A stretch of DNA of 22,547 nt from Candidatus Aenigmatarchaeota archaeon (GCA_038999215.1 JAWABM010000005.1:16498-39044); one strand, 5' to 3'; shown: positions 2,134-21,091, counted from the first letter of the stretch. Notes: generated by a model not told the origin, from the sequence alone. Numbers and translations: made by a program.

Positions 2134-2139
2134 TTTAAA
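2134..2139. promoter_or_regulatory. Palindromic TATA box possibly shared by tRNA-Ala (+) and the wHTH gene (-)
   Basis: TTTAAA is 28-33 bp upstream of tRNA position 1 and 23-28 bp upstream of ATG 2111 on the other strand. Confidence 0.5.
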
Positions 2140-2166
2140 TTCTCCACGCCATTACCTTTATTTCGA

Positions 2167-2241
2167 GGGCTCGTAGATCAACGGTAGATCGCTTGCTTTG
2201 CAAGCAAGAGGTTTGGGGTTCGAATCCCCACGAGTCCACCA
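2167..2241 (+). tRNA. tRNA-Ala(UGC), CCA encoded, no intron
   Basis: Acceptor GGGCTCG/CGAGTCC with the G3.U70 alanine identity pair. Anticodon arm CTTGC-TT-TGC-AA-GCAAG, T-loop GGTTCGAATCC, 3' ACCA. Confidence 0.97.
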
Positions 2242-2880: not shown

Positions 2881-3219
2881 TTACTTGATTCTCTGCGGTG
2901 CCGGAAGGTTCGGGCATGCGCCTGCGCACACCACGGTCTTGCAGCACAAATCCTGGTTCCTCGCATCCGTTGCGTAATCCTTGCACTTGGATTGGCAATA
3001 GTTGTACAGGTTCGTGTAGTTCAGGTACTTGAACGGTATGTTCGCCGTGTTGGAATCGCAGCCCCTGCTCTGCAGCTCGCTACAGGCCGCGTTTCTCGCC
3101 GAGTTCTCCGCCAGAACGTTGCCCGGGTTCGCGAAGTATATCGCTATCAGCCCGAGCATCACCAGCACTGCCACTGCTATTATGACGAGAACGTTCACCG
3201 GAAGCTCTATCCCTTTCAC
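2881..3219 (-). CDS. Class III signal peptide (pilin-like) protein, Cys-rich
   Basis: KG|IELPVNVLVIIAVAVLVMLGLIAIYF. GTG 3219 follows AGGTGA, complementary to this genome's anti-SD; alternative start 3228. Confidence 0.85.
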   Translation of the reverse strand: MKGIELPVNVLVIIAVAVLVMLGLIAIYFANPGNVLAENSARNAACSELQSRGCDSNTANIPFKYLNYTNLYNYCQSKCKDYATDARNQDLCCKTVVCAGACPNLPAPQRIK

Positions 3220-3264
3220 TGTTTTCACCTAAGACCTATTTGGGACACTATATATAAATAGTTT

Positions 3265-3564
3265 TCATGGCACGCTGCATCCGCAGAACTTCCTGCATTC
3301 GTTTGCTGTCGTTTTTCCGTAGCATTCGCTGCAGACCTCCTGCAGGTTCGTGATCAGCCTGCCGTTCTGCGTGAAGTTGGCCACCTTTATGTTTTTCGGA
3401 TCGTTGCTGCAGTCCTGCACCATCCTCAGGCAGGCGCTCGCCTTGGCCGAATCGCAGCTCATGCTCGGCGTCGTGAATATGAGCACGACCAGCGTTATCA
3501 GCACTATGACCGCCACAACGATTATGACCAGCACGTTTATTGGAAGTTCGAGCCCTTTTTTCAT
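3265..3564 (-). CDS. Class III signal peptide (pilin-like) protein, Cys-rich
   Basis: MKKG|LELPINVLVIIVVAVIVLITLVVLIF; paralog of 2881-3219. Confidence 0.85.
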   Translation of the reverse strand: MKKGLELPINVLVIIVVAVIVLITLVVLIFTTPSMSCDSAKASACLRMVQDCSNDPKNIKVANFTQNGRLITNLQEVCSECYGKTTANECRKFCGCSVP

Positions 3565-3597
3565 GGAAGAATTTTTGGTCGAACCGCCTTATAAGCT

Positions 3598-4569
3598 TTA
3601 TCCGCTTGAAACCTCGGCTTTCCTTGGCAGTTCGTAATCATAGTTTGTCAGGAACTCGAGCCTCGTGCTGTCGAAGCCGCCGGGATAGAGCGAGATGGAT
3701 TTGCTGTCCTCTATTGACACCTTGATTCCGAGCTTTACCAGGACCGTGTCTGTCCTTATCAGGGTGTCCTTTGTCACGCTTATGTTGAACGCATAGCCGT
3801 ACTTGCTGGCCAGGACCGATTCCATCTGCTCCCTTATATCGGATATTGCGCTGTTGGCCGCCTCGCTGTCATAGAAGTCAAGCCCGGCCAAGCCAGCCCG
3901 GTCGCCGAGCCCGCACTGGAACGAGTATTTTATGAACTCTGTGGCGTTCCTCTGCATCGCCTTGCATTCCTCGCCTAGCTTGCCTTTTAGGCTGTCGGCC
4001 GCCGAGGCGGCCAGCGCCCTGTCCTCGTTCTCGAACAGGTTGCGGCCGGCCCTGAGAAGGCCGAAATATGACGTTTTGACTGTCCTGTTGAACCTTCCAG
4101 AAGTCTCCACCGTGACCCTGGGGTTCTTTGCGTTGATTATGACGAACCTCTTGCCGCCGGACGCCGTCACATCGCTGTCCGTATGGCTTATTGAAAGGTC
4201 CGCAGCATCCCAGCTGACGGTCATGTTCTTGAAGAGCGTTATCTCCGATAGCCTGCCCATGTCGCCCGCCACGCTGTCGTTGAATTTTTCCTCCAGCTCG
4301 GCCATTGTGGGAGAGGCCGCCGACCACCTGGCAAAACCCCCGCCCTCGCTGCCGAGCGACGTTTGCCGCAGCAGCGAGAACCCGGCCGCCGAATCTATCG
4401 TCCTTTTCATCTCTTCCGCGGCCAGCTGCGCCGCATAAACGTGCCTTGCGCTGCTCGCTATGCTAACCCTCTTGTCGTACTCCACCGACTTGTCGAGCAC
4501 GAACAGCACGGTGACTATGATTATTATCACTATGCCCAATATGAAGGCTGTCGCCCCTTTCATCATCAT
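3598..4569 (-). CDS. Pilin-like / N-terminally anchored secreted protein (~323 aa)
   Basis: MMMKG|ATAFILGIVIIIIVTVLFVL then a soluble domain; ATGA overlap with the upstream stop. Confidence 0.8.
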   Translation of the reverse strand: MMMKGATAFILGIVIIIIVTVLFVLDKSVEYDKRVSIASSARHVYAAQLAAEEMKRTIDSAAGFSLLRQTSLGSEGGGFARWSAASPTMAELEEKFNDSVAGDMGRLSEITLFKNMTVSWDAADLSISHTDSDVTASGGKRFVIINAKNPRVTVETSGRFNRTVKTSYFGLLRAGRNLFENEDRALAASAADSLKGKLGEECKAMQRNATEFIKYSFQCGLGDRAGLAGLDFYDSEAANSAISDIREQMESVLASKYGYAFNISVTKDTLIRTDTVLVKLGIKVSIEDSKSISLYPGGFDSTRLEFLTNYDYELPRKAEVSSG

Positions 4570-5069
4570 CCGCTCCACAGGGACAGCGCGGCCCTGTCCT
4601 TTCCCGCCTGTACCACGTACTCGGTCCTCACTGCGTGCTCGGTGTGGACGCCCATCCTGGCAAGCTCGGTCTTCCGGCCGCCCGCCTCGAGCATGAGCGT
4701 GTAGGGCTTGTCCGTGAGCTGGCTCATTATGATGGCGCTGGACCTTTTCAGGTCTATCTCATTGCCGTTCAGCGTGAAGTTCGTGCTGCCAGCGCTCACC
4801 GAATAGGTCAGAAGGTCCCTGATCCTGTAGCCGTGGTCGGTGGTCTCCAGGTAGGAAATCATAATGTTGTCCGCGTTCGGCGAGTCGTAGAGCAGCACGC
4901 CGTTCACGTACACCGTGACGTTGACGTGCATTATGAACATCACCAGGGCCGCTATGAAGAGCATGGTCAGCGTGCCGAAAAGGGACGTTATGAATGTGAA
5001 TATGTCCGTGAGGTAGAATATCCCGCCTTTCCCTTTACGCCATGGCCTGTACCCTGACAACCATCTCAC
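4566..5069 (-). CDS. Pilin-like protein (~165 aa)
   Basis: RKGKG|GIFYLTDIF followed by a hydrophobic stretch; start uncertain (GTG 5069, or TTG 5060 after AGGTGA). Confidence 0.75.
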   Translation of the reverse strand: MRWLSGYRPWRKGKGGIFYLTDIFTFITSLFGTLTMLFIAALVMFIMHVNVTVYVNGVLLYDSPNADNIMISYLETTDHGYRIRDLLTYSVSAGSTNFTLNGNEIDLKRSSAIIMSQLTDKPYTLMLEAGGRKTELARMGVHTEHAVRTEYVVQAGKDRAALSLWSG

Positions 5070-5451
5070 CTGCCACTATCCTGTCTTCCGAAAACTTGAG
5101 CGAGACAGGGAACGTTCTCGTCTCGCCTTTTGTCGTCGCTCCGCCGAAGCTCCACGTCCTTCCGCCGCCCGTTATTTTCACGCTGTACACCGCATCCAGG
5201 TCGATGCACAGCTCCTTTGCGCTGTCCAGCTTGCTCACCTCGAACACGCCCCTCCTCGGCTCGCCGTTCACCGTCTCCGTGAGGCACGGCGCGGAAAGCG
5301 CGGCCTGCCCCAAGTTCAGCGTCATCCTGTCCGCGTCGAATATGACTATGCTCCCGTTGTACGATATCGACTGCATCACCATGCCGAGTATGCCGAATAT
5401 CAGTATCACGGTCGTCATCAGCTTCAGCAGGAACTCGGCTATTTCCATCAT
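5035..5451 (-). CDS. Pilin-like protein without a basic leader (138 aa)
   Basis: MMEIAEFLLKLMTTVILIFGILGMVM; ATG 5451 overlaps the upstream TGA (ATGA). The longer track start at 5556 lies inside the upstream gene. Confidence 0.75.
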   Translation of the reverse strand: MMEIAEFLLKLMTTVILIFGILGMVMQSISYNGSIVIFDADRMTLNLGQAALSAPCLTETVNGEPRRGVFEVSKLDSAKELCIDLDAVYSVKITGGGRTWSFGGATTKGETRTFPVSLKFSEDRIVAGEMVVRVQAMA

Positions 5452-5906
5452 TCGACACCCAATGTTATCTTGCCGTCCGTTTTGTTGACCACGAACGCCT
5501 TGTTTTCGGCCGGGTTCATCGTCACGTTGCCTGTCGCCACGTTCGTGCCCGCGCACCTGACATACGCTATCGGGCTCGGCGGGCCGAACTTCACGTACCC
5601 TCCCCTCTCGATGGTACGGCCTCCCCTGTAGGCGTCCTCAGGCGGCAGCACGTTTATGGTCTTCGCGCCGAGCACAGCTGTGAGCGGCGTCGGCGTCACT
5701 GCCAGCTCGACCGTCATGTTCCCGCCCCCTATGCAGCCTGCGCCTATGAAGCTGGCCAGCGAGTCCTGGACAGTCGAAGGCGCGGAATAGAGCATGTCCG
5801 AGACGAGCTGGGCGCCGTAGGTCACGGCCCAGTAGAACACCACGAATATCAGGACTATCACTCCCACCAGCACGATTATGTCGTAAAGCTGCGTGCCTCC
5901 CTTCAT
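5448..5906 (-). CDS. Class III signal peptide (pilin-like) protein (152 aa)
   Basis: MKG|GTQLYDIIVLVGVIVLIFVVFYW; GGAGG RBS and ATGA overlap at 5903-5906. Confidence 0.8.
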   Translation of the reverse strand: MKGGTQLYDIIVLVGVIVLIFVVFYWAVTYGAQLVSDMLYSAPSTVQDSLASFIGAGCIGGGNMTVELAVTPTPLTAVLGAKTINVLPPEDAYRGGRTIERGGYVKFGPPSPIAYVRCAGTNVATGNVTMNPAENKAFVVNKTDGKITLGVE

Positions 5907-7906
5907 TTGGCCGCCTCCGTGGCGTTGCCGAACGCCACCTTGCTGTAGTCGAGCGTGTACAGCCCTATCTCGTCCCCGCCCGTTATTATGAAGTTCTCCT
6001 TCCCTGCCTCCTTGAAGTACTTGTGCCAGCCCTGCTCCGATTCCGACCACTTCGCCACCGAGTCGCAGGTCCGCACCTGATTGCACAGGTCCGACGCCGT
6101 GGCGCTGTAGCCCTCGGGCACGATGAAATAGACGTACCTGAACGGCTCGATGCCGTATTCCGCGCCCTTCACGGCCTCCACTGCGCCCTCCCTCGCCGAG
6201 CCGAGCGCGACCATGCTCCAGTTGAACTTGCAGCTGCCCGACGCGTCGGCCAGCCTGAGGTACCTGAATGCGTAGCCGTCCTTCAGCAGCATCCTCGTCG
6301 TGTTGCCCTCCATCGAGGTCTCGGCTATCTTGGCCCAGCTCTTCGTGTCGTTGGATGCCTGCACCGTCACCGTGGTGTTACAGCCCTTGGCCGCCGGCTT
6401 CAGCGAGATGAATACGGTCCTTTCGTTCCTCACGGTGCCGAAGTCGTACGTGTGCGTCGCATAAGCGCCGCAGTTCTCGTAGTTGTGGTCTGCCCTAGAC
6501 TCGGCCGTCTCAAGGCACTCTTTGGTCGAGTTGCCCTTGATCAGCGAGCACATTACCCCTATCCTGGATTCGCTAATCCCCATGTAGCTCGTCAGCTGCT
6601 TCAGCGTGATGTTCCTGAAGTCTAGCGGCACCCTTTTCAGCTCGGACTCGGGCACGTCCGCATATATGTCCGGCTTTATCACCTTCACCAGGTCCGCGGG
6701 ATCGTCGCAGGTTATCTTCGTGGCGTTCTTCTCCGCGCCGTACTCGTACTTGAGGCAGCATGACATGAGGACGGAGCTGGCGCTGTCGAAGCTCTTGCAG
6801 CCCGACTGCATGTTAGCTTCCGTGAGCTCGCTGAAAGGCCAGCCCGGCCAGAGCGCGGCCGTTTCCGCGCAGGCCCCCGCTCCCCTGCAGTAGTCGACAT
6901 CCAGGCACGGTATCGGCGCCACCATCGCGATGAACTGCGTCCCGCTGGCGGGTATGGCCAGCTTCTTGCCGGCCGTCTTGGCTGCGAGCTTGGCGACGGC
7001 CTTGGCGCTGGGCTTCGACCCGAGCGAAAGCACGTCGGTGATCAGGTCGACGACATAGCATCCTGTTTCCGCGCTGTACGCCGTCAGAAGAGACGCGAGC
7101 GTCCCCTCGTCGGAATAGCAGTAGTTGGAGGCGTCCCCAGCGCTGCACTTGTCTACATAGCCGTAGATCGTGCTTCTTCCGCCCTCCTTGCCCACGTCGT
7201 CCCCCCTCCTGAACGTCACCTTGCCGTAGCAGGGCGCTATGAGATAGAATGTCGGGTCGTTGTCCGCTATCAGCATTCCGTCCCTGACTATCCTCACGTT
7301 CGTCACGTTCGGCGAGCTTATCTTGACCACCTCCTCTCTCCCGCGGATGTTGAAGCAGAGCGCGTTCCCGCTCGTGCAGGGCTCTTCCAAATACTTGGTC
7401 TTGAAGAACTCCTTGAACTGCGTGGTTGTCGGCCTCACGTCCCATGGCCTCTGCCCCGCGAACGAGCGCTCGAACGGATACGACTCCGAGAAGTGGAACA
7501 GGCTCTTCAGCTTCTCGTACGCGTCGACGGCGGCTACGCCCGTGGCGGGCTTTTCGCCGGGCGTGAACACGCTCTCGACAGGCTTCTTCGGGAACTCCTT
7601 GTAGTAGGCCATGTATTCCGGCACCATCATCCCCATGTAGGCTTGCACATAGCCCACGCCGTAGAGCGAGAACGTGTCCTCCTGGCAGAACCTGACGGAA
7701 GCGACGTTGCACGGCTTGCCTGTCACAGGGTCCTTGTAGTTCTCGTAGTTGCCCGCGCACTCTATGGCCCTCTTCATCTCCTCGATGCTCAGCCTGGCAA
7801 GCTCGTCGCAGTTCGAGCGGGGGAACACGACATACACGAGTATCAGCGTGAGTATGGCTATGATGACGGAGACCGCGAACATGACGGCGTGCGATGTCCC
7901 GCGCAT
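5903..7906 (-). CDS. Large Cys-rich pilin-like/adhesin candidate with a discoidin (F5/8 type C)-like domain (667 aa)
   Basis: MRG|TSHAVMFAVSVIIAILTLILVYVVF, many Cys, and VTVQASNDTKSWAKI...FRYLRL, the typical discoidin/galactose-binding fold pattern. Confidence 0.8.
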   Translation of the reverse strand: MRGTSHAVMFAVSVIIAILTLILVYVVFPRSNCDELARLSIEEMKRAIECAGNYENYKDPVTGKPCNVASVRFCQEDTFSLYGVGYVQAYMGMMVPEYMAYYKEFPKKPVESVFTPGEKPATGVAAVDAYEKLKSLFHFSESYPFERSFAGQRPWDVRPTTTQFKEFFKTKYLEEPCTSGNALCFNIRGREEVVKISSPNVTNVRIVRDGMLIADNDPTFYLIAPCYGKVTFRRGDDVGKEGGRSTIYGYVDKCSAGDASNYCYSDEGTLASLLTAYSAETGCYVVDLITDVLSLGSKPSAKAVAKLAAKTAGKKLAIPASGTQFIAMVAPIPCLDVDYCRGAGACAETAALWPGWPFSELTEANMQSGCKSFDSASSVLMSCCLKYEYGAEKNATKITCDDPADLVKVIKPDIYADVPESELKRVPLDFRNITLKQLTSYMGISESRIGVMCSLIKGNSTKECLETAESRADHNYENCGAYATHTYDFGTVRNERTVFISLKPAAKGCNTTVTVQASNDTKSWAKIAETSMEGNTTRMLLKDGYAFRYLRLADASGSCKFNWSMVALGSAREGAVEAVKGAEYGIEPFRYVYFIVPEGYSATASDLCNQVRTCDSVAKWSESEQGWHKYFKEAGKENFIITGGDEIGLYTLDYSKVAFGNATEAAK

Positions 7907-7939
7907 ACCCTAATATTGCGGTTGGGCGATTAAAAAGTC

Positions 7940-8269
7940 TTACTTACAGCAGGCTTTCTGCACTCCCGCCCTGGTCGCGGCATAGCCGGATTTGCCCGCC
8001 AGCGCGGTTATCTTCATGAACCCGCTGCTGTCGATTTTCTTGTCGACCGCGCAGTCTATGTCCTCGAACGCCGCGTAATTGCCCTGGTCGTTCTTCTGGC
8101 AGAAGCCGTCCATCACGAACCTTGTGCAGCAGGCGGTGAGCGTCGCCGAGATTTCCTGGCTGCTGGCCGTGCCTGTCAGGGGCGCGAGCATGAAGTACGC
8201 GACCAGCACCACGACGAAACCTATGATCACCAGTATTATCAGCGTGACCGCGAGATCCACGCCTTTCAT
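7940..8269 (-). CDS. Class III signal peptide (pilin-like) protein (109 aa)
   Basis: MKG|VDLAVTLIILVIIGFVVVLVAYFML; Cys pairs (ACC...C...C...ACC). Confidence 0.85.
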   Translation of the reverse strand: MKGVDLAVTLIILVIIGFVVVLVAYFMLAPLTGTASSQEISATLTACCTRFVMDGFCQKNDQGNYAAFEDIDCAVDKKIDSSGFMKITALAGKSGYAATRAGVQKACCK

Positions 8270-8424
8270 GCCCTTGCGCCTCCGCTTATCATGCTCCTCA
8301 GCTGGTCCAGGAGCGGGTTGGACGCTCCGGATATCATGAGCACCAGCAGCGCCGCTATTATGGCCGCTATCAGCACTATTATCAGTATCACCGTCGCGTT
8401 TATCGGGAGCTCGACGCCTCTCAT
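8266..8424 (-). CDS. Micro-pilin-like protein (52 aa), not in ORF track
   Basis: Manual translation MRG|VELPINATVILIIVLIAAIIAALLVLMISGASNPLLDQLRSMISGGARA*; GGAGG RBS; stop/start overlaps at both ends. Confidence 0.85.
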   Translation of the reverse strand: MRGVELPINATVILIIVLIAAIIAALLVLMISGASNPLLDQLRSMISGGARA

Positions 8425-8579
8425 CAGTAGCCCCTCCTAAGCAGCGAGTTGAAGAAATCGACCAGGCCCTGCGCCGGGTCAGCCGCCTGTCCGCTGAACA
8501 CGCCCATCACTATCAGGCCCGTGAGCAGCAGCGCTATCGCCACTATGACTATCATCAGGAACGTCATGGCGCTTATCAT
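8424..8579 (-). CDS. Micro-pilin-like membrane peptide (51 aa), not in ORF track
   Basis: MISAMTFLMIVIVAIALLLTGLIVMGVFSGQAADPAQGLVDFFNSLLRRGY*; GAGGGTGA RBS; ATGA and TGATG overlaps. Confidence 0.8.
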   Translation of the reverse strand: MISAMTFLMIVIVAIALLLTGLIVMGVFSGQAADPAQGLVDFFNSLLRRGY

Positions 8580-8668
8580 CCTATCACCCTCCACAGGACG
8601 AAGGCCGCTATTATGGCCAGTATTATCATCACCAGGAAGCTTATAGTTTCCTCGGATATGCCCTTCAT
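8576..8668 (-). CDS. Minimal pilin-like peptide (30 aa), not in ORF track
   Basis: MKG|ISEETISFLVMIILAIIAAFVLWRVIG*; AGGTG RBS; TGATG overlap upstream, ATGA overlap downstream. Confidence 0.8.
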   Translation of the reverse strand: MKGISEETISFLVMIILAIIAAFVLWRVIG

Positions 8669-8838
8669 CACACCTTGCCTCCCATGCCGCTTAGTATGCC
8701 CTGCAGCCAGTCCGGCTTGGTGATGTCCATGCCCGACTGGTAGGCCTGATAGGCGATGTATATCGCCACCGCGACTATTAGCAGCACTATGAATACGAAT
8801 ATTGCCATTTCGATGGACGCCTGCAGCCCTTTAGACAT
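8668..8838 (-). CDS. Micro-pilin-like protein (56 aa)
   Basis: MSKG|LQASIEMAIFVFIVLLIVAVAIYIAY; GGAGG RBS before ATG 8838. Confidence 0.85.
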   Translation of the reverse strand: MSKGLQASIEMAIFVFIVLLIVAVAIYIAYQAYQSGMDITKPDWLQGILSGMGGKV

Positions 8839-10669
8839 TGTAGAACGCCTCCAGCCTCTCATTGTCAACTATTATAAGGGAATAGTCGTAATAAAGCGTG
8901 TCGGTCCTCACGCCGTCGTATTTGGCGCTTGGTCCGCCCTTGCAGTCATACGACCACCTGTTGGTCTTGTCTGTGCAGCTGTTTATGCAGAACTTGCATT
9001 CGCCCGGCACGCCCATTGCCCCGCAGCTCGGCCCGCCCCAGCCCGTGCTCTTGTCGTACATCCAGTACGTGACTATCACGTTGTAGGTCTTGTTCGGTTC
9101 GAGGTACTCCTCGTTGACTATCAGGTTCGAATTCACCTGTATGGTCTTGAAGTCGGGGTTGTCGGCCTTGAGCTGCTTCTGGCATGAGTCCTTCTCCGAC
9201 CAGTACTTGTAGTTCATGTCGCCGAACGTAGAGTCTGTAGCCCATTCCATTAGCGACCCGACGATCCAGCCCCCCATTTCCACGCTCTTGTCGCTGCTCA
9301 TTATCTTCTGCCTTGCCCTCTTGTACTGCGTTTGCTTGGGCAGGGTGACGTAGCAGTCCGGCCCGTCGCATTGGTTGTAGCGGAACGTCCAGAGCGCGCT
9401 GCTGTCGCTCTCGCTCTTCACCTGGATGGCTTTCACGTATTCTGCCGCGAAGTCGTTTATCAGCATCTTCTGGCTGGGCCTGAACGTGATGTTCCTTATC
9501 ATCCTCAGCTCGGGGTACAGCAGCCCTGCCGGGGTGCCCCTGGCATTGTAATCATTGTCCTTGAACAGCGCGCCGAGGTCCTTCGCGACAGCGGCAGGGT
9601 CGGCCGTTCCTATGTCCTGGCCCTTCGGGATCCTCGGCATGCTCACCTGATACGATTTCGTGCCCGTGTTCCAGTAGACCACGTACATGAAGTCGGGCAC
9701 GCAGTTGTTTGGCGTGTAATAGCCCGTGGCCTGGCTGGTGACGCTGCAGTTCTCATAGCCCGGCGGGAAGAAGTCCACCTTGCTGTCCTTGACCTTGTAG
9801 GTGCTCTCCTGATAGTCCTTCCCGTACCTCGTGCTTGTGAAGTAGTCCGCTCCGCCCGATGTCCAGCTCGTTATCCTGTCCGCGTCCGGGCATATCTGGC
9901 AGTCTTGCACCCAGTCCGGAGAAACCGTCGAGGCGACCTTTTTCTTCTTGGTGAGATATTCTACCAAAGATGGCGGAAATATGTCTTTGATAATATCCTT
10001 TGTCGCCTGCCCTGTCATCGCCAGCACGTTGGTGACTTCGACGTTCTCGCACTTGCTGTTGCCGAACTTCAGGTTCTCCCCGCCTACGTTCACCGTGCTT
10101 GCGCCGGTGCAAAGCTTCTTCTCGCCCACCTTCATCCTGTTGAGCAGAAGCGAGACGCAGGCCTCGTCGAGGTGCTGCGGGCAGTTCGGAAGGAGCGGCG
10201 TGTCGAGCCCGCACGCCTCCGCTATCTTCTTCCTCTGGTCCTCTGTCAGGCTGGCCGACTCCCAGTAATGCGTGAATGTGCCGTAGTTGATCGTATCAAT
10301 GTCTATTGCGAACTTCTTCGCGCCGATGACCCTGAGCTTGTCGCTCAGCGCGAGCGCCTGGCCCCTGCCGGCCGAGTCGGACTCGCCGTACCGGACGAAG
10401 TCGTCCCTTATCGTCTTGGCGATCGAGCAGCCCACTTCCGTCGCCGTGGTCGGCAGGCCGAGCCCTGTCAGGTCCACGCTCTCCACCCCGAACGCCGAGG
10501 AAGCGAGCGGCGGCCTTATCTTCGGTATCGAGCCTATCACCATCTGCGGGAACATCTTGCCGAGGTCCCCGCCCGCCGCAAGCAGCCCTATGAGAAGCAG
10601 CGAAATTATTATGATTCCTACGACAGCCGCCAGCGATTCGACCGCTATTCCTCTCATTCCTGCCACCAA
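8831..10669 (-). CDS. Large Cys-rich pilin-like/adhesin candidate (~610 aa)
   Basis: MRG|IAVESLAAVVGIIIISLLLIGLL (ATG 10657 or TTG 10669) followed by a Cys/Thr/Tyr-rich extracellular-type region. Confidence 0.8.
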   Translation of the reverse strand: MVAGMRGIAVESLAAVVGIIIISLLLIGLLAAGGDLGKMFPQMVIGSIPKIRPPLASSAFGVESVDLTGLGLPTTATEVGCSIAKTIRDDFVRYGESDSAGRGQALALSDKLRVIGAKKFAIDIDTINYGTFTHYWESASLTEDQRKKIAEACGLDTPLLPNCPQHLDEACVSLLLNRMKVGEKKLCTGASTVNVGGENLKFGNSKCENVEVTNVLAMTGQATKDIIKDIFPPSLVEYLTKKKKVASTVSPDWVQDCQICPDADRITSWTSGGADYFTSTRYGKDYQESTYKVKDSKVDFFPPGYENCSVTSQATGYYTPNNCVPDFMYVVYWNTGTKSYQVSMPRIPKGQDIGTADPAAVAKDLGALFKDNDYNARGTPAGLLYPELRMIRNITFRPSQKMLINDFAAEYVKAIQVKSESDSSALWTFRYNQCDGPDCYVTLPKQTQYKRARQKIMSSDKSVEMGGWIVGSLMEWATDSTFGDMNYKYWSEKDSCQKQLKADNPDFKTIQVNSNLIVNEEYLEPNKTYNVIVTYWMYDKSTGWGGPSCGAMGVPGECKFCINSCTDKTNRWSYDCKGGPSAKYDGVRTDTLYYDYSLIIVDNERLEAFYNV

Positions 10670-10698
10670 TAATAATTGGCCGGCTTATTTAAAATGCT

Positions 10699-10887
10699 TC
10701 ACACTTCGATTATCCTCGGCCCGAAGAAGAAGTACATCATGTCGTAGTATATGCTCCTCACGAACTGGTAGACGAAGCTGTTCGGGCCCTGGCTGACCAC
10801 GAAAGCTATGAATATGGCCATGAAGGCCACGCCTATTATGAGCACAACTATGAACATCGTCGACTCCTCGGAAAGATGGTAAGGCAT
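10699..10887 (-). CDS. Micro-pilin-like membrane peptide (62 aa)
   Basis: MPYHLSEESTMFIVVLIIGVAFMAIFIAFVV; GAGGTGA RBS. Confidence 0.75.
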   Translation of the reverse strand: MPYHLSEESTMFIVVLIIGVAFMAIFIAFVVSQGPNSFVYQFVRSIYYDMMYFFFGPRIIEV

Positions 10888-10891
10888 TCCA

Positions 10892-11080
10892 TCACCTCAG
10901 TATTACCTTGAGCTGCGCCATCATGTAGAGCGCTATGGCCGCGAACAGGTCCTGCACGGCCTTGAATATGTCGCCCGGCCCGGCTCCCGTCAGCACGCCG
11001 AGCAGCAGCAGGAATATGGCGACCACCATGATTATGGTCACCACGAGCCATATCGACTCCTTTGTCATTTTTACCGGCAT
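10892..11080 (-). CDS. Micro-pilin-like membrane peptide (62 aa)
   Basis: MPVKMTKESIWLVVTIIMVVAIFLLLLGVL; AGGTGA RBS before ATG 11080 (alternative GTG 11089). Confidence 0.75.
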   Translation of the reverse strand: MPVKMTKESIWLVVTIIMVVAIFLLLLGVLTGAGPGDIFKAVQDLFAAIALYMMAQLKVILR

Positions 11081-11089
11081 GCCGTTCAC

Positions 11090-11263
11090 CTATATCCCGG
11101 GCACCTTCGACCCGAGGTTCTCGAACATCTTCGCCAGCCCCGTCCAGAAGTCGAACTTCGGCAGGTCCAGCTGGCCCGTGTAAGCGAGCAGGCCTATTAT
11201 CACCATTATTATCGCCACCGCGAATATGAGGTATATTATCAGCATTACCGCCTTGTCTTCCAT
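11090..11263 (-). CDS. Micro-pilin-like membrane peptide (57 aa), not in ORF track
   Basis: MEDKAVMLIIYLIFAVAIIMVIIGLLAYTGQLDLPKFDFWTGLAKMFENLGSKVPGI*; fills the gap between its neighbours. Confidence 0.8.
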   Translation of the reverse strand: MEDKAVMLIIYLIFAVAIIMVIIGLLAYTGQLDLPKFDFWTGLAKMFENLGSKVPGI

Positions 11264-11264
11264 G

Positions 11265-11798
11265 TCATCCCACCGCCCCGGGCATCACCGCGAACTCCGC
11301 CCTGAACTTGTCTATTGGGCCTTTCCCAGCGGCCGCCGATATCTCCCTCAGCTTCGCGCCCTCCGGGAACGTGAACGTCTTGCACGCCTCGCTGTACGGG
11401 CTTGTCGTAACAGCTTCCTTTGCTTCCTGGCCGTCGCCATAGGTCACCTTGAACGTGATCAAGGTGTACTGTCTCGGCACTGCGCAGACCGTCACGTTGC
11501 TCGCCCACACGCTGCCGAACTTGTCCTCCACGTTGACGAACTGCACCGAATCGCAGTCGCCCATGCCGATGGCCGGCATCCTGCACTTCGCGCACTCGTC
11601 CGAGACGACCGAGCTGAAGCAGGCCTTCCCTACCTTGCCGTCGAAGCTTATGCCCGAGCTCTCGGTGCCTATCTCCATTGGCTGCAGTACCGAAAATATG
11701 AACTGTCCGACGAGGAAAAAGGCGACCACGACCACTGCCGCGAGTATTATCCATATTACCATCATCACGACTTCGTTCGTTATGCCTTTCATGGTCAT
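11265..11798 (-). CDS. Class III signal peptide (pilin-like) protein (177 aa)
   Basis: MTMKG|ITNEVVMMVIWIILAAVVVVAFFLV; ATGA overlap with the platform gene stop. Confidence 0.85.
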   Translation of the reverse strand: MTMKGITNEVVMMVIWIILAAVVVVAFFLVGQFIFSVLQPMEIGTESSGISFDGKVGKACFSSVVSDECAKCRMPAIGMGDCDSVQFVNVEDKFGSVWASNVTVCAVPRQYTLITFKVTYGDGQEAKEAVTTSPYSEACKTFTFPEGAKLREISAAAGKGPIDKFRAEFAVMPGAVG

Positions 11799-13954
11799 CC
11801 GCCTGATGCCGCGAGGTTGAGCGTTTCGGGCGTGAGCAGCGAGGTTATCGCAGGCCCGAACAAGCCGTACGTCACGAGCCAGCTAATGACATAGATGAGG
11901 ACGCCTATCGTCAGCGTCCTGCCTAGCGTGGACCTCAGGCCGACAGCGTCGTCCCCGAACTCTATCCTGTTCACGAACACCGAGAGCAGTATGATGGTCT
12001 CTATCATGTAGATGCCGACTATTATCTGGAATTCCGCCGGCCCGATTGGCATCTTGCCGCCCATCATGGACGGCCCGAACATGAAGCTGTACTGGAACGA
12101 GTTCATGCCCTCCCCTCCCGCCGACACGAGCCCGGCTATCTGCGAGCCGAGCTTTGAGAGTATGTTTATTATCACGACCGCCATGGTTATCGTGACGCCT
12201 GCCACGAGCGGTGTGAGTATCGTGGCGAGGAACCTCATCGAGGACAGCGTCTCCCCGAGCACGCTGTTGACCTCCTCCTTCACCTCGTGCACGCCGTCGA
12301 GGTACTTGGATATCGTGAGCATCGCCGACGACGTCGCCGCCATGCCCTTCTTGCTGGATTCCAGTATGGTGGACATTATCGACCTTATCAGCCGCGACGG
12401 GTAGTGCCAGACGGCGCCCACCTCCTTGTCGAAGAGCGCCTGCTCGAAGGTGTAGCCGAACTTCTTCATGTTCTCGCTGGTTATCTTGAACAGGTCGGCT
12501 ATCTTCATGCCCTTCATGTTGGCCGAAGCCCTCTCTATCGCCAGCTCTATTGGCGTGCCCTCGGATATCTGGTTGCCCAGCTGGAACAGGGCGACCGAGA
12601 ACTCGTTCTCTATCTTCTCTATCTCGCTCCTTATCTTCATCTTCTGTAGGCTGTCCAGCACGCAGTACGTCACTATCGACATCGATATCGCCGCCGTCAC
12701 CAGGAGGGAGAGGTTCACGTTCGCGAAACTGGCCCTCGTGCACTCCAGCTCCACCTCGGCCGATGCCGGGCTTATGCACGGCCCGACCGTGTATATCGAT
12801 GCCGCCATGAGGGGCAGGAGCACCATCAGCGAGAACACCCATATCGGCACCAGCGCGCCGCCTATCCTGAGCTTGCCCATCGGGGGCACGCCCCTTGCGA
12901 GCGATATGTCCGGCTGCGAGAACGTCGGCGGCCTGGCCTTGAGTATGTAGTCGATGAACACCCAGAGGAACACCGGAAGTATGAAGTTGTAGCCGAGGAA
13001 CAGCATGGCCGGCTTTATGACGTCGGCCATGAAGATGACTATTATCGGGAACAGCACCAGGCCCATGACCGGAAGAAGGACGCCCATCGCGTGTATGAGC
13101 ATGACCGGCATCCTCAGCCCGCCGACGTAGTGCTTTGTCCTTTCCATCGTGCCGTTCAGTATGACGCTGAGGGTCTCCTCGAAGAGCTTTTCCCTCCTCT
13201 CCTTCTCCCTCACTGAGCCCCTCAGCAGGTTGAGCGCCTCGGCGAACTCCTCGTTCCTGCCCTTCCACTTGTCTATGTATGACGCTATGGCCGCGTCGGC
13301 CGTGGAATAGACGCCGACGTTTATGTCCCACAGGAGCTTCTTGAGGTCCCAGGCGAGCGGGCCCTTCAGGTTCTCGGACGCGAACTTTATTGCGCCCTCC
13401 ATGTTCGGGCTGGTCCGCATGTAGATTATCATGTAAAGCACCGCGAGGACAGAGTCCGCCGACATCTTGAGTATGGTCTTCTTCGCGTTGGCGGACGGGT
13501 AGGTGAAGATGTAGTAGAACGCGCCGATCATGATTATGACCAGCATTACCGTGAAGAAGCCCAAGTTATAGACGAGCGAAAGGAACGTGGCTATGAACAG
13601 CATGAAGAACGTCAGTATCGAGAAGGCGAGCACGCCCCTCGGCGTCACGCCGAGATAGCCGGTTTTTATGTCGTCGTCCATGCTCCTTGCAATGCCCGCC
13701 GGCGGGTCCACCGGAAGTATGCGGGCGGACGCGGAGCACAGCCTTTCGAACAGGTTTTTCGGCTGCTCCTTTATCTCTGCCAGAAACTCCCTGTATTCCG
13801 TGGCCTTCGTGGCGATCTGCTTCTTTTCGGGCAGCCTGAGCTCCGCGGAGCTTATTATCTTCTTGAGCTCCGCCCTTTTCGCTTCGAGCGCCTTTCTCCT
13901 GGCCTCCTCAAGTTCTTCCCTCTTGCTTTTTTTCCTGCCGAAAAGCCCCATCAT
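11795..13954 (-). CDS. Type IV pilus/T2SS-F family membrane platform protein (PilC/TadB-TadC/ArlJ-like, two F-type repeats)
   Basis: Polytopic membrane protein with two repeats (YMRTSPNMEGAIKFASE...; GNQISEGTPIELAIERAS...), directly downstream of the secretion ATPase with ATGA overlap. Confidence 0.88.
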   Translation of the reverse strand: MMGLFGRKKSKREELEEARRKALEAKRAELKKIISSAELRLPEKKQIATKATEYREFLAEIKEQPKNLFERLCSASARILPVDPPAGIARSMDDDIKTGYLGVTPRGVLAFSILTFFMLFIATFLSLVYNLGFFTVMLVIIMIGAFYYIFTYPSANAKKTILKMSADSVLAVLYMIIYMRTSPNMEGAIKFASENLKGPLAWDLKKLLWDINVGVYSTADAAIASYIDKWKGRNEEFAEALNLLRGSVREKERREKLFEETLSVILNGTMERTKHYVGGLRMPVMLIHAMGVLLPVMGLVLFPIIVIFMADVIKPAMLFLGYNFILPVFLWVFIDYILKARPPTFSQPDISLARGVPPMGKLRIGGALVPIWVFSLMVLLPLMAASIYTVGPCISPASAEVELECTRASFANVNLSLLVTAAISMSIVTYCVLDSLQKMKIRSEIEKIENEFSVALFQLGNQISEGTPIELAIERASANMKGMKIADLFKITSENMKKFGYTFEQALFDKEVGAVWHYPSRLIRSIMSTILESSKKGMAATSSAMLTISKYLDGVHEVKEEVNSVLGETLSSMRFLATILTPLVAGVTITMAVVIINILSKLGSQIAGLVSAGGEGMNSFQYSFMFGPSMMGGKMPIGPAEFQIIVGIYMIETIILLSVFVNRIEFGDDAVGLRSTLGRTLTIGVLIYVISWLVTYGLFGPAITSLLTPETLNLAASGG

Positions 13955-16188
13955 GACACCTTCTTTGCGGAATCCTTGAACCATGCGAGCCATTCGTCAT
14001 AGACTCGCCTGCTGTCCACATCGCCTGTCTCCTTCCTGCTTTTTTCGCAGAGCGAGTGGAACATCTGGTTTGAGGCCACGGTAGTCTCCGCCTCCATCAG
14101 CTCCCTGTTGCCGGTCTGCCTGGCTATGTCGACGATCGACTGGAGCACCTTCCCCCTGAGCTGTATGTTGTCCCATATCGCGTCCCACCTTCCGGCCCAG
14201 CCCGGCACGCTCTTGGATATCTGGTTTATCACGTAGCTTTCCCCGTTCATCAGCGTGTCCGTGGGCCTGAGCGAATCGCTGTCGCTGCTGTATTCAAGCA
14301 GGTTTACGAAGCCGTGCTCCTGCACAGGGTCCTTCTGCCAGTGCTTCCTCACCTCGGTGACTTCCGTCACCCTTCGCAGGCTCCTCAGCCCGTCCGGCGT
14401 CCTGAGCTTGTTGCACACCACCACGAGGTCGGTCGCCTTGAAGCTGGTCGGAGGCACGCCCAGGTCGTTCACGACCCTGTCGAACACTCCGTACGCCGAT
14501 TCGCCGTGTATGGTGCCGGCCACGACGTTGGCGAGCGCGCCGATGCGCATGGCTTCGTAGAGCGCCTTCGCCTCCACCGAACGGACCTCCCCGATGAACA
14601 GGCAGGAATCGCCGAGACGCAGCGCGGTGCGCAGCGCCTCCTCGGCCGGAAGCTCGAGCTCGACTCTTGTTATCACGGAGCGCGACTTTAGGCGCTCGAT
14701 GTTGTAGCCCAGCGAGCGCAGCGCCTCGACCGGAAGCTCGAATGTGTCCTCGACCGTGATTATCCTGTAATACGGTATCACCTGCAGCATTATCGAGCCC
14801 AGGAGCGACGTTTTGCCCGCCCCTCGCGTGCCCGCCACCAGCAGCGTTCTCCCGTATGAGGCCATGAACCACAGCAGGCCTGCGAAGAGGGGGTTGAAGA
14901 ATTTCGCGTCAAGGTAGAGCGGGAACGTCCACGGCTTGAACCTGTGCCTCCTCAGCGCGAACGCCAGCCCTTCCGGAGACAGCCGTGGCGCTATCGCCGC
15001 GACCCTTGCCACGCCTCCAGGCACCGCTATCTCTGTGTCGAGCACAGGGTTCGCCTCGTCCAGCGGCCGCCCGCTCAGAAGCTTGAACCTTGTGGAAAGG
15101 CGCTCTGCGTCGGTCACTGTCGGTATGAGGTTGGTCTCGCACTCGTCGAACTCCTGGTGGTTCACGAAGAGCGGCGTCCTGCCGAGCGGGCTGTTGATGT
15201 TTATGTCCTGTATCTTGGGGTCCGCGAGCAGCGGCTCTATTATACCGAATCCGGCCGTGTTGCGCGTCAGTATGGCGGCGAGCCTGGCCATCTGCTCCGA
15301 GCTCATCTTGAAGGCCCTGACGTCGGCCAGGTCCCTTATCAGCTCCTCGCTTATGGACTGGAATATCTCCCTCATCCTCTGCTGCTCCTTCATCTCAAGC
15401 TCGTGCGGCCTGCGCTTCTCCAGCACCCTGCGGGCGTCGTCGAGCAGGGTGTACTCCTCCTCGGTCAGCCTGAACTCCGGCGGAACAATGAAGTATATCG
15501 GCCTCACCTTGCCGGGCACCTTGTAAATCTCGACCTTTATGTCGCCTATGTCGTACTTGGAGAGCAGGTCGCCTTTCGGGGGCATTGTCACGTATTTGGT
15601 GAACATGAAGCTGGGCCTGGTGAGCGGATGGAACAGCTTCCTGTATACCGCCCTGTCGCCGACCTTGAGGCCGGCTATGAAGGGCTGCGCCCTCTTGATC
15701 AGCTCGGTCCGCTCGAGCACGTCCCTTATCGGCAGCAGCACGTTGTTCAGGTAGGCGTCCATGCACTCCTTGTCGACGCCCTTTTCATGCAGTATCCTGA
15801 CGTGGCGTATCTCCCTCAGCAGGCTCACGTACGCGCCTATCGGGTCGCCCCTCAGCTGGAACGTGGCGAAATTGTACAGCCACGAGTACCAGGCCGAACG
15901 GTACTTGTCGCACTTCACCGGCCCGAGCGCCTGCTGCGAGATGAGCTTCCGCTCCTTGGTTATCTCTATTATCGCGCCCGCTATCTCCGACAGCATCGCG
16001 GTCTGCTCGTAATCGTACTCATTGTCCCTTGTCTCGGTCAGAATTATCGTGTGGACCTTGCGGTCCGTGACCAGGCGGTCGATTACCCTGGCCATTATAA
16101 CGTCGAAGTCCTCTATGTTGGACCCGAATATTCCTCCGAGGCAGTTCATCTTCAGGACTCCGTTTTCGACTTCGATTTCATATACCAT
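13951..16188 (-). CDS. Type II/IV secretion system ATPase (PilB/TadA/VirB11/ArlI family), 745 aa
   Basis: GFGIIEPLLADPKIQDININ, Walker A GTRGAGKTS, Asp box ITVEDTFEL, ALRLG..., Walker B LFIGEVR, His box GTIHG. Confidence 0.95.
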   Translation of the reverse strand: MVYEIEVENGVLKMNCLGGIFGSNIEDFDVIMARVIDRLVTDRKVHTIILTETRDNEYDYEQTAMLSEIAGAIIEITKERKLISQQALGPVKCDKYRSAWYSWLYNFATFQLRGDPIGAYVSLLREIRHVRILHEKGVDKECMDAYLNNVLLPIRDVLERTELIKRAQPFIAGLKVGDRAVYRKLFHPLTRPSFMFTKYVTMPPKGDLLSKYDIGDIKVEIYKVPGKVRPIYFIVPPEFRLTEEEYTLLDDARRVLEKRRPHELEMKEQQRMREIFQSISEELIRDLADVRAFKMSSEQMARLAAILTRNTAGFGIIEPLLADPKIQDININSPLGRTPLFVNHQEFDECETNLIPTVTDAERLSTRFKLLSGRPLDEANPVLDTEIAVPGGVARVAAIAPRLSPEGLAFALRRHRFKPWTFPLYLDAKFFNPLFAGLLWFMASYGRTLLVAGTRGAGKTSLLGSIMLQVIPYYRIITVEDTFELPVEALRSLGYNIERLKSRSVITRVELELPAEEALRTALRLGDSCLFIGEVRSVEAKALYEAMRIGALANVVAGTIHGESAYGVFDRVVNDLGVPPTSFKATDLVVVCNKLRTPDGLRSLRRVTEVTEVRKHWQKDPVQEHGFVNLLEYSSDSDSLRPTDTLMNGESYVINQISKSVPGWAGRWDAIWDNIQLRGKVLQSIVDIARQTGNRELMEAETTVASNQMFHSLCEKSRKETGDVDSRRVYDEWLAWFKDSAKKVS

Positions 16189-16259: not shown

Positions 16260-16589
16260 ATGGCTGAGCTGGACATCCAGGCTGTTCTTAACGAGGCCTA
16301 CAGGAGGCTTAACGAGGACACTCGCAGGCTCCGCGCCCTTGAGGAAAGGAGCGACCTGCTCGAGAGCAGGATAGGCAGGCTTGAAGGCGACATTCTCAGG
16401 GTGCAGGACGACTCAAGAAAGAGGTTTGACGCGGTTGCAGCGGCGATGAAAGGTCTCGAGGAGAGGATGGTGCTCCTGGATAATGAGATAACCAAGCTGA
16501 ACAAGCTTATGGAGAAGACCGCCAGGAAGAGCGAGGTCGACGCGCTCCAGAACCTTGTTGAGCTCTACAATCCGTTCAAGAAGAAGTGA
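16260..16589 (+). CDS. Coiled-coil hypothetical protein ending in YNPF (109 aa)
   Basis: Heptad-rich sequence; GTGAT RBS; C-terminal ...LVELYNPFKKK. Confidence 0.85.
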   Translation: MAELDIQAVLNEAYRRLNEDTRRLRALEERSDLLESRIGRLEGDILRVQDDSRKRFDAVAAAMKGLEERMVLLDNEITKLNKLMEKTARKSEVDALQNLVELYNPFKKK

Positions 16590-16594
16590 TGATT

Positions 16595-17251
16595 ATGGCA
16601 GAGAAGGAGGTAATTCCGGTCGAGCTGGTGCAGAGGCTGGCTGCGCAAGGAAAGTCCGAACCGCAGATAATAGCCGAGCTCAGGGCGCACGGATTCACGC
16701 CCGCTCAGATAAGCAGGGCGATAAAGGAGGCCCTGAAGGAGGAGGTTTCTAAGCCAGAGGAGCTTGTGCCAGCGCCGCCAGCCAGGCCTTCCGAGCCGGG
16801 CGGCCCGCACAGGATGCCTGCCGAAGTAAGGCGCAGGGAGGCCGTCCTGCCGGTGCCGGCCGAGATAATGCCACGAAAGGAGAGGATGGCCTTGCCAGAA
16901 GCAAAGCAGCCTTCCGAAATATCGCTTCCCGTGCCTGCTGAAAGGCCTGCGCCGGCCGTGGTCGCCCCCAAGATAGGGGTCGAGGAGCTGGTCGAGCAGG
17001 TGGTCGAGGAGAAGTGGAAGGAGACGAGGGAAAAGATAGACGGCTTCCAGAAGCAGGTCGACGCGGCCAGGGAGGCCGTCGAGGGGATGAAGGCGCGCCT
17101 GGCGGCCGCCGGGACAGAGGAGAAAGGCGAGGAGAAAAGACTAGGCGCTCTCATTGAAAGCCTGCGGGCCGACGTGGAAAAGCTGGATTCGCGCACCGAA
17201 GCGCTCGAGAAGGCGTTCAAGGAATTCTCGTCGTACATGAAGAAGAAATAA
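16595..17251 (+). CDS. Hypothetical protein: small helical N-domain, Pro-rich linker, C-terminal coiled coil
   Basis: VQRLAAQGKSEPQIIAELRAHGFTPAQISRAI, Pro-rich spacer, EELVEQVVEEKW coiled coil; alternative starts 16586/16589. Confidence 0.85.
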   Translation: MAEKEVIPVELVQRLAAQGKSEPQIIAELRAHGFTPAQISRAIKEALKEEVSKPEELVPAPPARPSEPGGPHRMPAEVRRREAVLPVPAEIMPRKERMALPEAKQPSEISLPVPAERPAPAVVAPKIGVEELVEQVVEEKWKETREKIDGFQKQVDAAREAVEGMKARLAAAGTEEKGEEKRLGALIESLRADVEKLDSRTEALEKAFKEFSSYMKKK

Positions 17252-19490: not shown

Positions 19491-20021
19491 CTACTCTTTC
19501 TCGAAAATCATCCACATTATGGCCGCCACCACGATGACAAAGAACAGTATGGACATCGTGGGCATTCCGCCGACAGCCACGCTTATTCCCAGAAGGTTCA
19601 GCCCGCCGGCGCCTATGAATATCAGTATTGCCAGTATTATGAAGAAGGCGGCAAAGTGCTTCCCGTACTTGTGCAGCACCTTTACTGGCACCAGCTTTTC
19701 GGATTTCTTGCCCTCCTTTTCTTCCACTACCTTTTCGAACACCGTCACGCCCGCGACCTCAAGGAACACGATGAATACCAGTATTCCCAGCACGACAAGT
19801 ATCAGGCTTTGCGCCATCTTCTCGAGCACGCTTATCAGCGCTGCCGGCGCCGCGAGTATCACGAAGAAAGCCGCGACTATGGATATGATCGCCCTTGAAG
19901 CCTTGTCCTTTGGCACCCCTGCCTGGCTCATTAACCCGTAGAGCGCAGCGAACGAGAGCAGCCAGAGCATTATCTGCGGGAACCCGAGGTTCGTCAGGTA
20001 TGCGGTTATCGGATCTGCCAT
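19491..20021 (-). CDS. Multi-pass membrane protein, paralog 1 of tandem family
   Basis: About 5 hydrophobic segments; LGFPQIMLWLLSFAALYGLM..VPKDKASRAIISIVAAFFV. Confidence 0.88.
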   Translation of the reverse strand: MADPITAYLTNLGFPQIMLWLLSFAALYGLMSQAGVPKDKASRAIISIVAAFFVILAAPAALISVLEKMAQSLILVVLGILVFIVFLEVAGVTVFEKVVEEKEGKKSEKLVPVKVLHKYGKHFAAFFIILAILIFIGAGGLNLLGISVAVGGMPTMSILFFVIVVAAIMWMIFEKE

Positions 20022-20060
20022 GCAATCACTCTATTATTTGCTCACCCTGCTTATATATCT

Positions 20061-20561
20061 TTAACCCTTCGATTCCTTCATCAGCACCCAGATGGCGCCT
20101 ATCATCACCGCTATGAGCAGCACGAACGTTGCCACAGCCTCAGTGATAACTATCCTGGGCAGGCCTATTACCTGCAGCCCGCCCGCGCCTATGAATATCA
20201 CGACGAAGAGGACGAGTATTATGGCTCCGAAGAACTTCGGGTGGGACGCGAATATCGATATCTTCGATTCCCCGACCTTCACGCCCGCTATCTCAAGGAA
20301 TATGACAGTGAGCAGCAGGCCGAACGCTATGATAATAGATGCTGTCACGAGGTTCTCCAGGAACGCCACGGCCGGCCCTGCGGCAGCTGCGAGCAGCACG
20401 AGGAACGCGGCTGTTATCGATATCACGCCCCTTGCTGTCACGGACTTGGGTATGTTCACGTGCTGGAGCAGCCCGTAAACGAGCGCCAGCGTGAGCGCCC
20501 ACAGAAGGACCAGGGCGAACCCCGCCTCCCTCAGCGCCAAAATCACTTCGGTCAGTGCCAT
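20061..20561 (-). CDS. Multi-pass membrane protein, paralog 2
   Basis: AGFALVLLWALTLALVYGLL..IPKSVTARGVISITAAFLV; shares IFLEIAGV and IFIGAGGL with paralog 1; alternative start 20570. Confidence 0.88.
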   Translation of the reverse strand: MALTEVILALREAGFALVLLWALTLALVYGLLQHVNIPKSVTARGVISITAAFLVLLAAAAGPAVAFLENLVTASIIIAFGLLLTVIFLEIAGVKVGESKISIFASHPKFFGAIILVLFVVIFIGAGGLQVIGLPRIVITEAVATFVLLIAVMIGAIWVLMKESKG

Positions 20562-20599
20562 TATAATCACATAATTCTTCGGTTACCCTCAATATATAT

Positions 20600-21091
20600 T
20601 TAACCCTTCTTTCCGCCGCCCTCTCCTCCGCTGCCCATTTTCATGGCGCTCCAGAACAGGGAGACGACGAATATGAAGCCCAGCAGGAAGAGCAGGTTCT
20701 CCCCTCCGCCTATCAGCGGGAACTGCACCGGGAACTCCTGCAGCACCATCCACCCGACCGAGAGCATGACCAACAGCACGCCTGCGTTGACCACCATAGT
20801 CTCGACGTCCCCTCCGTGCTTCCTCACGCCCAGCAGCTGCATGGTGAACGCAAGGAAGAACATGACTATGAAGAACCATGTCACGTTCGGCAGGAAGTTC
20901 CAGAGCGTCGCTATCAGCGGCGGGTAGGTCGAGGCGAAGAAGCCTATCGCCAGGGCGATCACGAGGTGCACCGCCCTGCTCTTGAACACGTTCGAGAGCT
21001 CCAGCACCCCGAATATGACCGCGAATATGAACAGCGACGATATGAGCGTCTGGTTGCCTATGCCCAGCCCGAGTATGTCGGCCGCCATCAC
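20600..21091 (-). CDS. Multi-pass membrane protein, paralog 3
   Basis: LFIFAVIFGVLELSNVFKSRAVHLVIALAIGFFA has the same N-terminal hairpin pattern. Confidence 0.85.
   Translation of the reverse strand: MMAADILGLGIGNQTLISSLFIFAVIFGVLELSNVFKSRAVHLVIALAIGFFASTYPPLIATLWNFLPNVTWFFIVMFFLAFTMQLLGVRKHGGDVETMVVNAGVLLVMLSVGWMVLQEFPVQFPLIGGGENLLFLLGFIFVVSLFWSAMKMGSGGEGGGKKG

Follow-up and report, generated by a model that had tools for sequence, protein, structure and literature searches.

A putative type IV pilus locus with a subclade 4F-like motor and seventeen single-helix genes in a DPANN archaeon

Gene Content of the Locus

The window, by which we mean the whole analyzed stretch of 22,547 nucleotides, contains a gene for a secretion ATPase, a single gene for a membrane platform and, behind these, 17 open reading frames (ORFs) of 30-667 aa that all lie on the minus strand, from 11798 down to 2881 (Table 1). 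Each of the 17 has a single hydrophobic segment close to its N-terminus, and in this the sequence-only reading, which had described 17 co-oriented genes of that size range with one N-terminal helix each, proved right. A genome of the same genus (G001) has a positional orthologue for every one of them, in the same order and at 43-71% identity. Codon differences between the two genomes are more frequent at third than at second positions in all 17 genes and therefore even the 30-aa ORF, gene 7, is a real gene (9/2/19 differences, with third-position changes predominating; its orthologue in G001 also has 30 aa and is 70% identical). Overlaps occur at nine of the 17 junctions, seven of them of the ATGA/TGATG type (eight with a start at 11798), and the remaining junctions are gaps of 1-41 bases; that most genes are joined by such overlaps was an overstatement. 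Gene 14 lacks an ATG close to its KG motif (window 5035-5069) and overlaps gene 13 by 26-35 bases, and the same long overlapping leader is found in G001.

Table 1. Coordinates and properties of the features of the locus (↓, predicted cut).
Feature	Coordinates	Strand	Length (aa)	Remarks
Gene 17	2881..3228	-	115	KG↓IELP, 8 Cys; candidate major pilin; TATA-like TTTATATA 22 bases upstream
Gene 16	3265..3564	-	99	KG↓LELP, 8 Cys; candidate major pilin; TATA-like TTATAA 24 bases upstream
Gene 15	3598..4569	-	321-323	MKG leader; family in 15 loci
Gene 14	4566..5060	-	~164	KG motif; start TTG 5060 or GTG 5069; family in 17 loci
Gene 13	5035..5451	-	138	Leaderless in window; predicted minor pilin, DUF7285-like fold; family in 23 loci
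Gene 12	5448..5906	-	152	MKG leader; predicted minor pilin of conserved block; positional alignment
Gene 11	5903..7906	-	667	MRG leader, 24 Cys; predicted tip adhesin
Gene 10	7940..8269	-	109	6 Cys; distant ELP-head family member (A5 profile E 6.5e-10), conserved directly before gene 11
Gene 9	8266..8424	-	52	RG↓VELP N-terminus, headless; 35 bits on ELP N-terminal profile
Gene 8	8424..8579	-	51	Without KG
Gene 7	8576..8668	-	30	MKG leader and helix, nothing else
Gene 6	8668..8838	-	56	MSKG leader, helix-only
Gene 5	8831..10657	-	608	MRG leader, 18 Cys; predicted large adhesin-like subunit
Gene 4	10699..10887	-	62	Helix-only, without KG
Gene 3	10892..11080	-	62	Helix-only, without KG
Gene 2	11090..11263	-	57	Helix-only, KA motif
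Gene 1	11265..11792	-	175	MKG leader, 6 Cys; predicted minor subunit; orthologue in G001 only
Membrane platform (PilC/TadC type), single	11795..13954	-	719	~9 predicted helices
Secretion ATPase (VirB11/TadA type)	13951..16188	-	745	Subclade-4F-like, long N-terminal domain; PF00437 above cut-off
Divergent coiled-coil protein	16260..16589	+	109	Homologue in 63/80 ATPase loci; likely a coiled-coil protein (CCP) of Hamm et al. (2024)
Divergent coiled-coil protein	16586..17251	+	221	Pro-rich linker; homologue in 62/80 ATPase loci
Three paralogous multi-helix membrane proteins	19491..21091	-	176, 169, 163	Upstream of ATPase; family in 55/80 loci; no Pfam name
Membrane protein, C-terminal coiled coil	21088..21657	-	189	14/21 Aenigmatarchaeota-type loci, 0/59 others

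The two coiled-coil genes and the upstream membrane-protein family are part of the conserved neighborhood. The boundaries first given to the locus (2881..16188) were too narrow, as they omit the conserved upstream genes at 16260-17251 and 19491-21657. Between these two groups, at 17624-19455 on the minus strand, lie two tandem paralogues of 251 and 359 aa, the longer with a nucleotidyltransferase domain, which are present in only one of the 80 loci and possibly represent the DPANN MNT-HEPN family listed in Table 1 of Makarova et al. (2019; PMC6393860). The other end of the window (1-2241) holds an archaeal 16S rRNA gene, then a 187-aa winged-helix gene on the opposite strand and a tRNA-Ala gene; no 23S gene lies within the window.

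The Motor and Its Relation to Subclade 4F

The Walker A and B motifs and the Asp and His boxes of the ATPase are intact (motifs at 453, 478, 532 and 558). The platform protein scored under the PF00482 cut-off, and BLASTP against the one named TadC that was compared, the 4F TadC (arCOG01814) of Haloterrigena turkmenica, gave an E-value of 6e-34 over 518 columns. A platform gene is present in 69 of the 80 ATPase loci. Together with the PF00437 match, these results bear out the claim that a single ATPase/platform pair of a type IV filament machine is encoded here. Two domain scans, of 31 and 36 window proteins, found no prepilin peptidase, ArlH or ArlF/G in the window, as had also been stated.

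The nearest ATPases are 64-80% identical and many of them come from records titled Ca. Aenigmatarchaeota, which agrees with the DPANN origin proposed earlier (the genome is Aenigmatarchaeota-like); those of Woese- and Pacearchaeota come next, at 41-60%. A match at an E-value of 4e-102 or better was found in 58 of the 61 genomes searched. The best annotated match is the ATPase on a plasmid of H. turkmenica, whose neighbors were labeled subclade 4F in the text available from Makarova et al. (2016; PMC4858521). The window ATPase scored 234.5 bits against this 4F protein, compared with 112 against AfGspE, 78 against CpaF and 74 against FlaI. Trees of 48 and 23 rows, in which 4F alone of subclades 4A-J was represented and the long-branched H. 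turkmenica protein was its one named member, separated the window ATPase, its DPANN orthologues and H. turkmenica from other DPANN secretion ATPases with an SH-aLRT support of 100 (100/100 with a mixture model on the 23 rows). The AU test rejects moving the H. turkmenica ATPase to another paralogue group. On these sequence comparisons the motor groups with Makarova's subclade 4F, and the locus is a lineage variant of 4F. The cysteine-rich N-terminal domain of the 4F ATPase aligns with the window protein, which keeps few of the cysteines; near paralogues retain CxxC.

ATPase frames of 1,250-2,000 aa occur in genomes G001, G008, G023, G024, G027, G032, G043 and G053, with the match split near 457, 478-499 or 537, as expected for inteins. 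DPANN-type ATPases at 44-47% identity were found in loci L028, L063, L067 and L070, whose records are titled Bacillota or Methanosarcinales; these are probably mislabeled bins. The source genome also contains a second platform gene with five pilin-like genes (G000:C1:24-3878, L086). Two of the five start with (KG↓I)EGLP, similar to the major pilin of the H. turkmenica 4F system (arCOG02981, RA↓IEGLP). EGLP-type genes in related genomes come after a paralogous ATPase of 670-710 aa and therefore family f1 possesses another 4F system, of a more euryarchaeal-like kind. The source genome lacks the ATPase of that system, probably because of a contig break at this place.

Leaders and Prepilin Peptidase

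No match above the cut-off to the Pfam and NCBIfam pilin families was obtained for any of the 17 array genes. Twelve of them have [KR]G ahead of the helix and five do not, compared with 2/51 other ORFs of at least 100 aa with an N-terminal helix in the source genome (Fisher p 6.5e-8; ORFs defined by our own heuristic, without a gene caller). The leader is mostly just MKG or MRG. In 27 arrays, the window included, K/R-G/A was found in 259 of 433 genes and a three-residue leader in 149. In the form used here, the FlaFind rule fits five of the 17 genes and leaves out the other 12; an acidic residue at +5 is conserved neither in the window array nor in the 27 arrays.

The family of gene 13 is informative on processing. 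It comprises 381 clusters, and among the 150 listed a leader is present in 80, absent in 66 and could not be scored in four. In 75 of the 80 leader-bearing members, 11-12 residues separate the predicted cut from an anchor at a fixed position of the profile, and in 47 of the 66 leaderless members the initiator methionine lies 10-11 residues from the same anchor, so leaderless members start about where processed ones would. A quick tree of 70 rows implies at least seven changes of leader state (branch support not considered). Some relatives have G↓Q at the predicted cut. This register is the strongest argument from sequence for the predicted cleavage after glycine and, together with the [KR]G sites, it is consistent with the class III-type N-termini of the sequence-only reading.

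A genome-wide search for the peptidase, as had been suggested, found one A24 peptidase, on another contig (G000:C1:47147-47488), which is above the cut-off and has both aspartate motifs and approximately eight helices. Prepilin peptidases were found in 53 of the 61 genomes. In Woese- and Pacearchaeota, 13 of the 26 loci with at least 5 kb past the platform have a peptidase downstream on the same strand, and all six of those tested pass PF01478.

Candidate Major Pilin

A family of small cysteine-rich proteins, here called ELP, includes the products of genes 16 and 17, and each of these two genes is preceded by a TATA-like box, judged by eye. The family gave 200 database matches. Among the 120 listed, none has a Pfam domain, 117 have [KR][GA]-x-x-LP with Glu at +2 in most, six or eight cysteines are present in 106, and a DxDxDG-like loop, missing from both window copies, in 70; the FlaFind rule in the form used above is passed by two of the 117. 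Members occur in 54 of 61 genomes, with 1-10 matches apiece, as tandem copies and as copies distant from the locus. Since repeated and stand-alone genes are a criterion for major pilins in Makarova et al. (2016; PMC4858521, in the text available), the family is major-pilin-like by this criterion. The ELP family is likely the main building block, missed by standard pilin searches.

A confident structural model of gene 17 built from 136 sequences (pLDDT 89.8, pTM 0.66) has a long broken N-terminal helix (11-32 and 35-55) followed by a small cysteine-rich head consisting of a short hairpin and two helices, and a search of PDB structures with this model gave no match. The N-terminus of arCOG02981 of H. 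turkmenica resembles KG↓IELP, and the ELP profile detects two sequences at an E-value of 0.0015, but on the N-terminal profile the score is 6.1 bits, no better than other helices. BLASTP of the H. turkmenica PilA-family pilin against ten window subunits gave no match.

Large and Minor Subunits

For gene 10, 18 positional orthologues were aligned. The following gene 11 has a conserved N-terminal part of approximately 140 aa and a variable remainder; its family occurs in 19 loci, and the window copy has a weak discoidin-like match at 483-564 that is below the cut-off (PF00754, E 0.014). In some orthologues (e.g., L091:11582-14053) the conserved N-terminal domain is followed by a GG-containing segment and a long variable, cysteine-poor insert, which is absent from the window copy. 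This layout presumably resembles that of polymorphic cargo proteins. A search with the tail of gene 12 matched only G001. The helix of gene 13 is only moderately hydrophobic (2.24), and an Atlas model of its product gave a TM of 0.63 to a euryarchaeal DUF7285 cluster, a family that lies in haloarchaeal pilus loci. Families for the analysis of gene order were defined after removal of the helix. The order 11<13<14<15 is kept in 15/15 loci that have all four, usually with KG↓xELP genes next.

The family of gene 5, for which no Pfam or NCBIfam match was found, has 12 members in eight loci. Of 89 large subunits in related loci, 70 were scanned for domains. No named domain was present on 61 of these, and eight carry adhesin-type or repeat domains (CARDB, PKD, Big_1, GLUG, InlB-B and LVIVD). 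The one left, a 791-aa array subunit of genome G056 (L098:12840-15212), combines the SLT transglycosylase and amidase domains of a peptidoglycan hydrolase, which suggests contact with bacteria and also points to something beyond plain adhesion.

Conservation Across DPANN Archaea

Six of the 57 relatives carrying an ATPase orthologue gave partial matches or matches near contig ends; the downstream DNA of the other 51 was examined, and it extends for at least 9 kb in 39. In 26 of these 39 informative relatives the platform is followed by 9-21 single-helix genes without interruption. The median is 17, so that the subunit set of the window, described earlier as unusually elaborate, is of ordinary size. 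Among the 13 relatives without an unbroken array of at least nine genes, one array is inverted, one interrupted, one displaced and one scored seven genes, and several lack a nearby platform or array. In locus L096 (G009) the minor-subunit block is inverted and faces the platform gene, with its internal order intact. The front half of the array (genes 1-9) is variable and, except for gene 5, was matched in G001 only.

In Woese-, Pace- and Nanoarchaeota there are 59 loci, 26 of them with at least 5 kb past the platform, and 15 of these have a run of at least six single-helix genes. The arrays of Woese- and Pacearchaeota are similar to that of the window and often end in a prepilin peptidase. The genomes searched are kin and therefore the conservation counts are not independent tests.

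Proposed Function

We consider it probable that the locus encodes a type IV filament system of DPANN origin, in which a 4F-type motor and 17 single-helix products would build a predicted surface pilus that likely attaches to other cells. Cell attachment is most likely the function, and this prediction is the weakest step of the proposal. The subunits would be inserted in the membrane through their N-terminal helix, and the A24 peptidase may then cleave after K/R-G and remove the three-residue MKG/MRG leader; leaderless subunits would begin at about the cleavage point and need no cut. The fixed block of genes 11-12-13-14-15 may form a priming or tip complex bearing large cysteine-rich proteins. 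The KG↓xELP proteins, which are multi-copy and whose genes 16 and 17 each have a TATA-like box, would form the shaft. Assembly would be driven by the 4F ATPase, and the coiled-coil pair and upstream membrane proteins may position or regulate the motor.

A far-reaching form of this proposal is tentative, and as a whole we regard it as rather doubtful: the locus would be a near-universal host-contact machine of cluster 2 DPANN, with a shaft pilin whose disulfide-bonded head has a new fold, with many minor subunits that have lost the leader and bypass the peptidase, and with the 'missing' nanoarchaeal 4F pilins in order directly behind the motor.

Several alternatives have to be weighed against the pilus. 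The small and leaderless genes could encode membrane-anchored assembly factors, so that the filament would consist of products of KG-bearing genes only. Genes 2-4 and 6-9 lack a folded head, such genes number 1-8 per array and they were matched in G001 only. Also, in the text available, Sivabalasarma and Albers (2026; PMC13705601) assign to their system 2 both membrane proteins and pilin-like proteins that lack SPIII. However, the leader is present or absent in register inside one orthologous family, that of gene 13, and Epd and Flp pilins are headless too (PMC13705601, text available). We think it unlikely that the filament is restricted in this way.

The main rival is a short pseudopilus, resembling the bindosome or type II secretion and without a long filament, which would carry large class III proteins and enzymes across the S-layer and deliver them onto the surface or into a partner cell. 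The median array has several proteins of at least 400 aa; the long inserts of gene-11 orthologues and the SLT and amidase subunit would suit such a role, and an ATPase found almost throughout the class, at 47-80% identity, looks more like a core function. Against this, the tandem and off-locus copies of the ELP family are like those of a major pilin by Makarova's criteria, and no substrate-binding domain was detected among the 70 large subunits scanned. A pseudopilus is therefore improbable in our judgment, somewhat more so than a filament of KG-bearing products only.

A pilus for uptake of DNA or nutrients instead of adhesion seems distinctly remote. Import of DNA by pili was proposed for Nanohaloarchaeota and Undinarchaeota in the text available from Xie (2022; PMC9563170), but among the neighbors within the window there is no DNA channel or nuclease, and the named domains on large subunits of relatives are mostly adhesin-type. 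That the genes encode ordinary Sec signal or anchor proteins that chance to follow a motor would accord with the lack of pilin family matches, but it is hardly credible given the [KR]G enrichment, the conserved gene order, the in-register leaders and the linked peptidase in other DPANN.

Comparison With Known Systems

The locus bears on how DPANN archaea locate their hosts and keep hold of them. As far as the available texts of three papers go, no cognate pilins could be assigned to the nanoarchaeal 4F ATPase (Makarova et al., 2016; PMC4858521), Nanohalo- and Undinarchaeota are without annotated pilins (Xie, 2022; PMC9563170), and the pilins of Nanobdellati are scattered, with DPANN making up 1% of ordered 4F hits while an unordered Asgard/DPANN table has arCOG01814 at least 1,091 times (Sivabalasarma and Albers, 2026; PMC13705601). 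Such pilins were overlooked, we suggest, because their leaders have three residues or are absent, Glu is at +2 and many genes encode only 30-60 aa.

The archaellum was rejected as a model. Its ATPase belongs to the same superfamily as the window ATPase, which scored 135 bits on the FlaI model, below the cut-off of 550; no archaellin match was found in the source genome (88% complete), and ArlH and ArlF/G gave no match in the window. The Epd pilus (system 1) of Methanococcus is similar in its many pilins, headless small pilins and large adhesins, and also in the G↓Q seen in some relatives of the window locus, but it has two TadC genes and the window a single platform. PF04021 (QxSxE, Epd-type) gave no match in the source genome, with a positive control in M. 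jannaschii, and the Gln at +1 and Glu at +5 of Epd pilins do not occur in the window; this system was rejected as well.

Subclade 4F, by contrast, combines ATPase arCOG01818 and a single TadC arCOG01814 with a coiled-coil partner, as the window does. According to the tables in the text available (PMC4858521), the two proteins have 714 and 606 aa in N. equitans and 747 and 669 aa in Nst1, compared with 745 and 719 aa in the window. The halobacterial 4F loci described there have one or two PilA-family pilins (arCOG02981, arCOG10216), an S-layer-like protein and the coiled-coil protein arCOG07564, whereas in the window the subunits number 17 and the candidate major pilin is rich in cysteine.

The locus type had been called uncharacterized, and in outline it is already published, as far as the texts available show. 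Makarova et al. (2019; PMC6393860) described DPANN islands of a FlaI-like ATPase, TadC and unannotated signal-peptide proteins, read as 'diverse pilins'; the text at hand gives one example and does not go into families, clade, major pilin or cleavage. Two conserved loci of pilus and coiled-coil-protein genes in cluster 2 DPANN were reported by Hamm et al. (2024; PMC11291902). In these loci, which occur in Aenigm-, Woese-, Pace-, Nano- and Nanohaloarchaeota, an ATPase (there CpaF) and TadC lie next to genes for coiled-coil proteins, as in the window, and proteins of the T4P-CCP loci were detected by proteomics in Ca. Nha. antarcticus (text available). In the legend there, filament proteins (FlaF, PilA) are given for locus 1 alone, and the text as examined mentions neither the pilin array and its order nor leaders or a kinship to 4F. 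On layout and taxonomic range, the window locus may correspond to locus 2. The literature searched holds no account of the ordered array, the ELP family or in-register leader loss. What is added here is a candidate major pilin and a family with in-register presence or absence of the leader. The locus thus offers testable parts, namely a candidate shaft protein found in most of the genomes surveyed, a set of minor subunits encoded in a fixed order and a leader rule.
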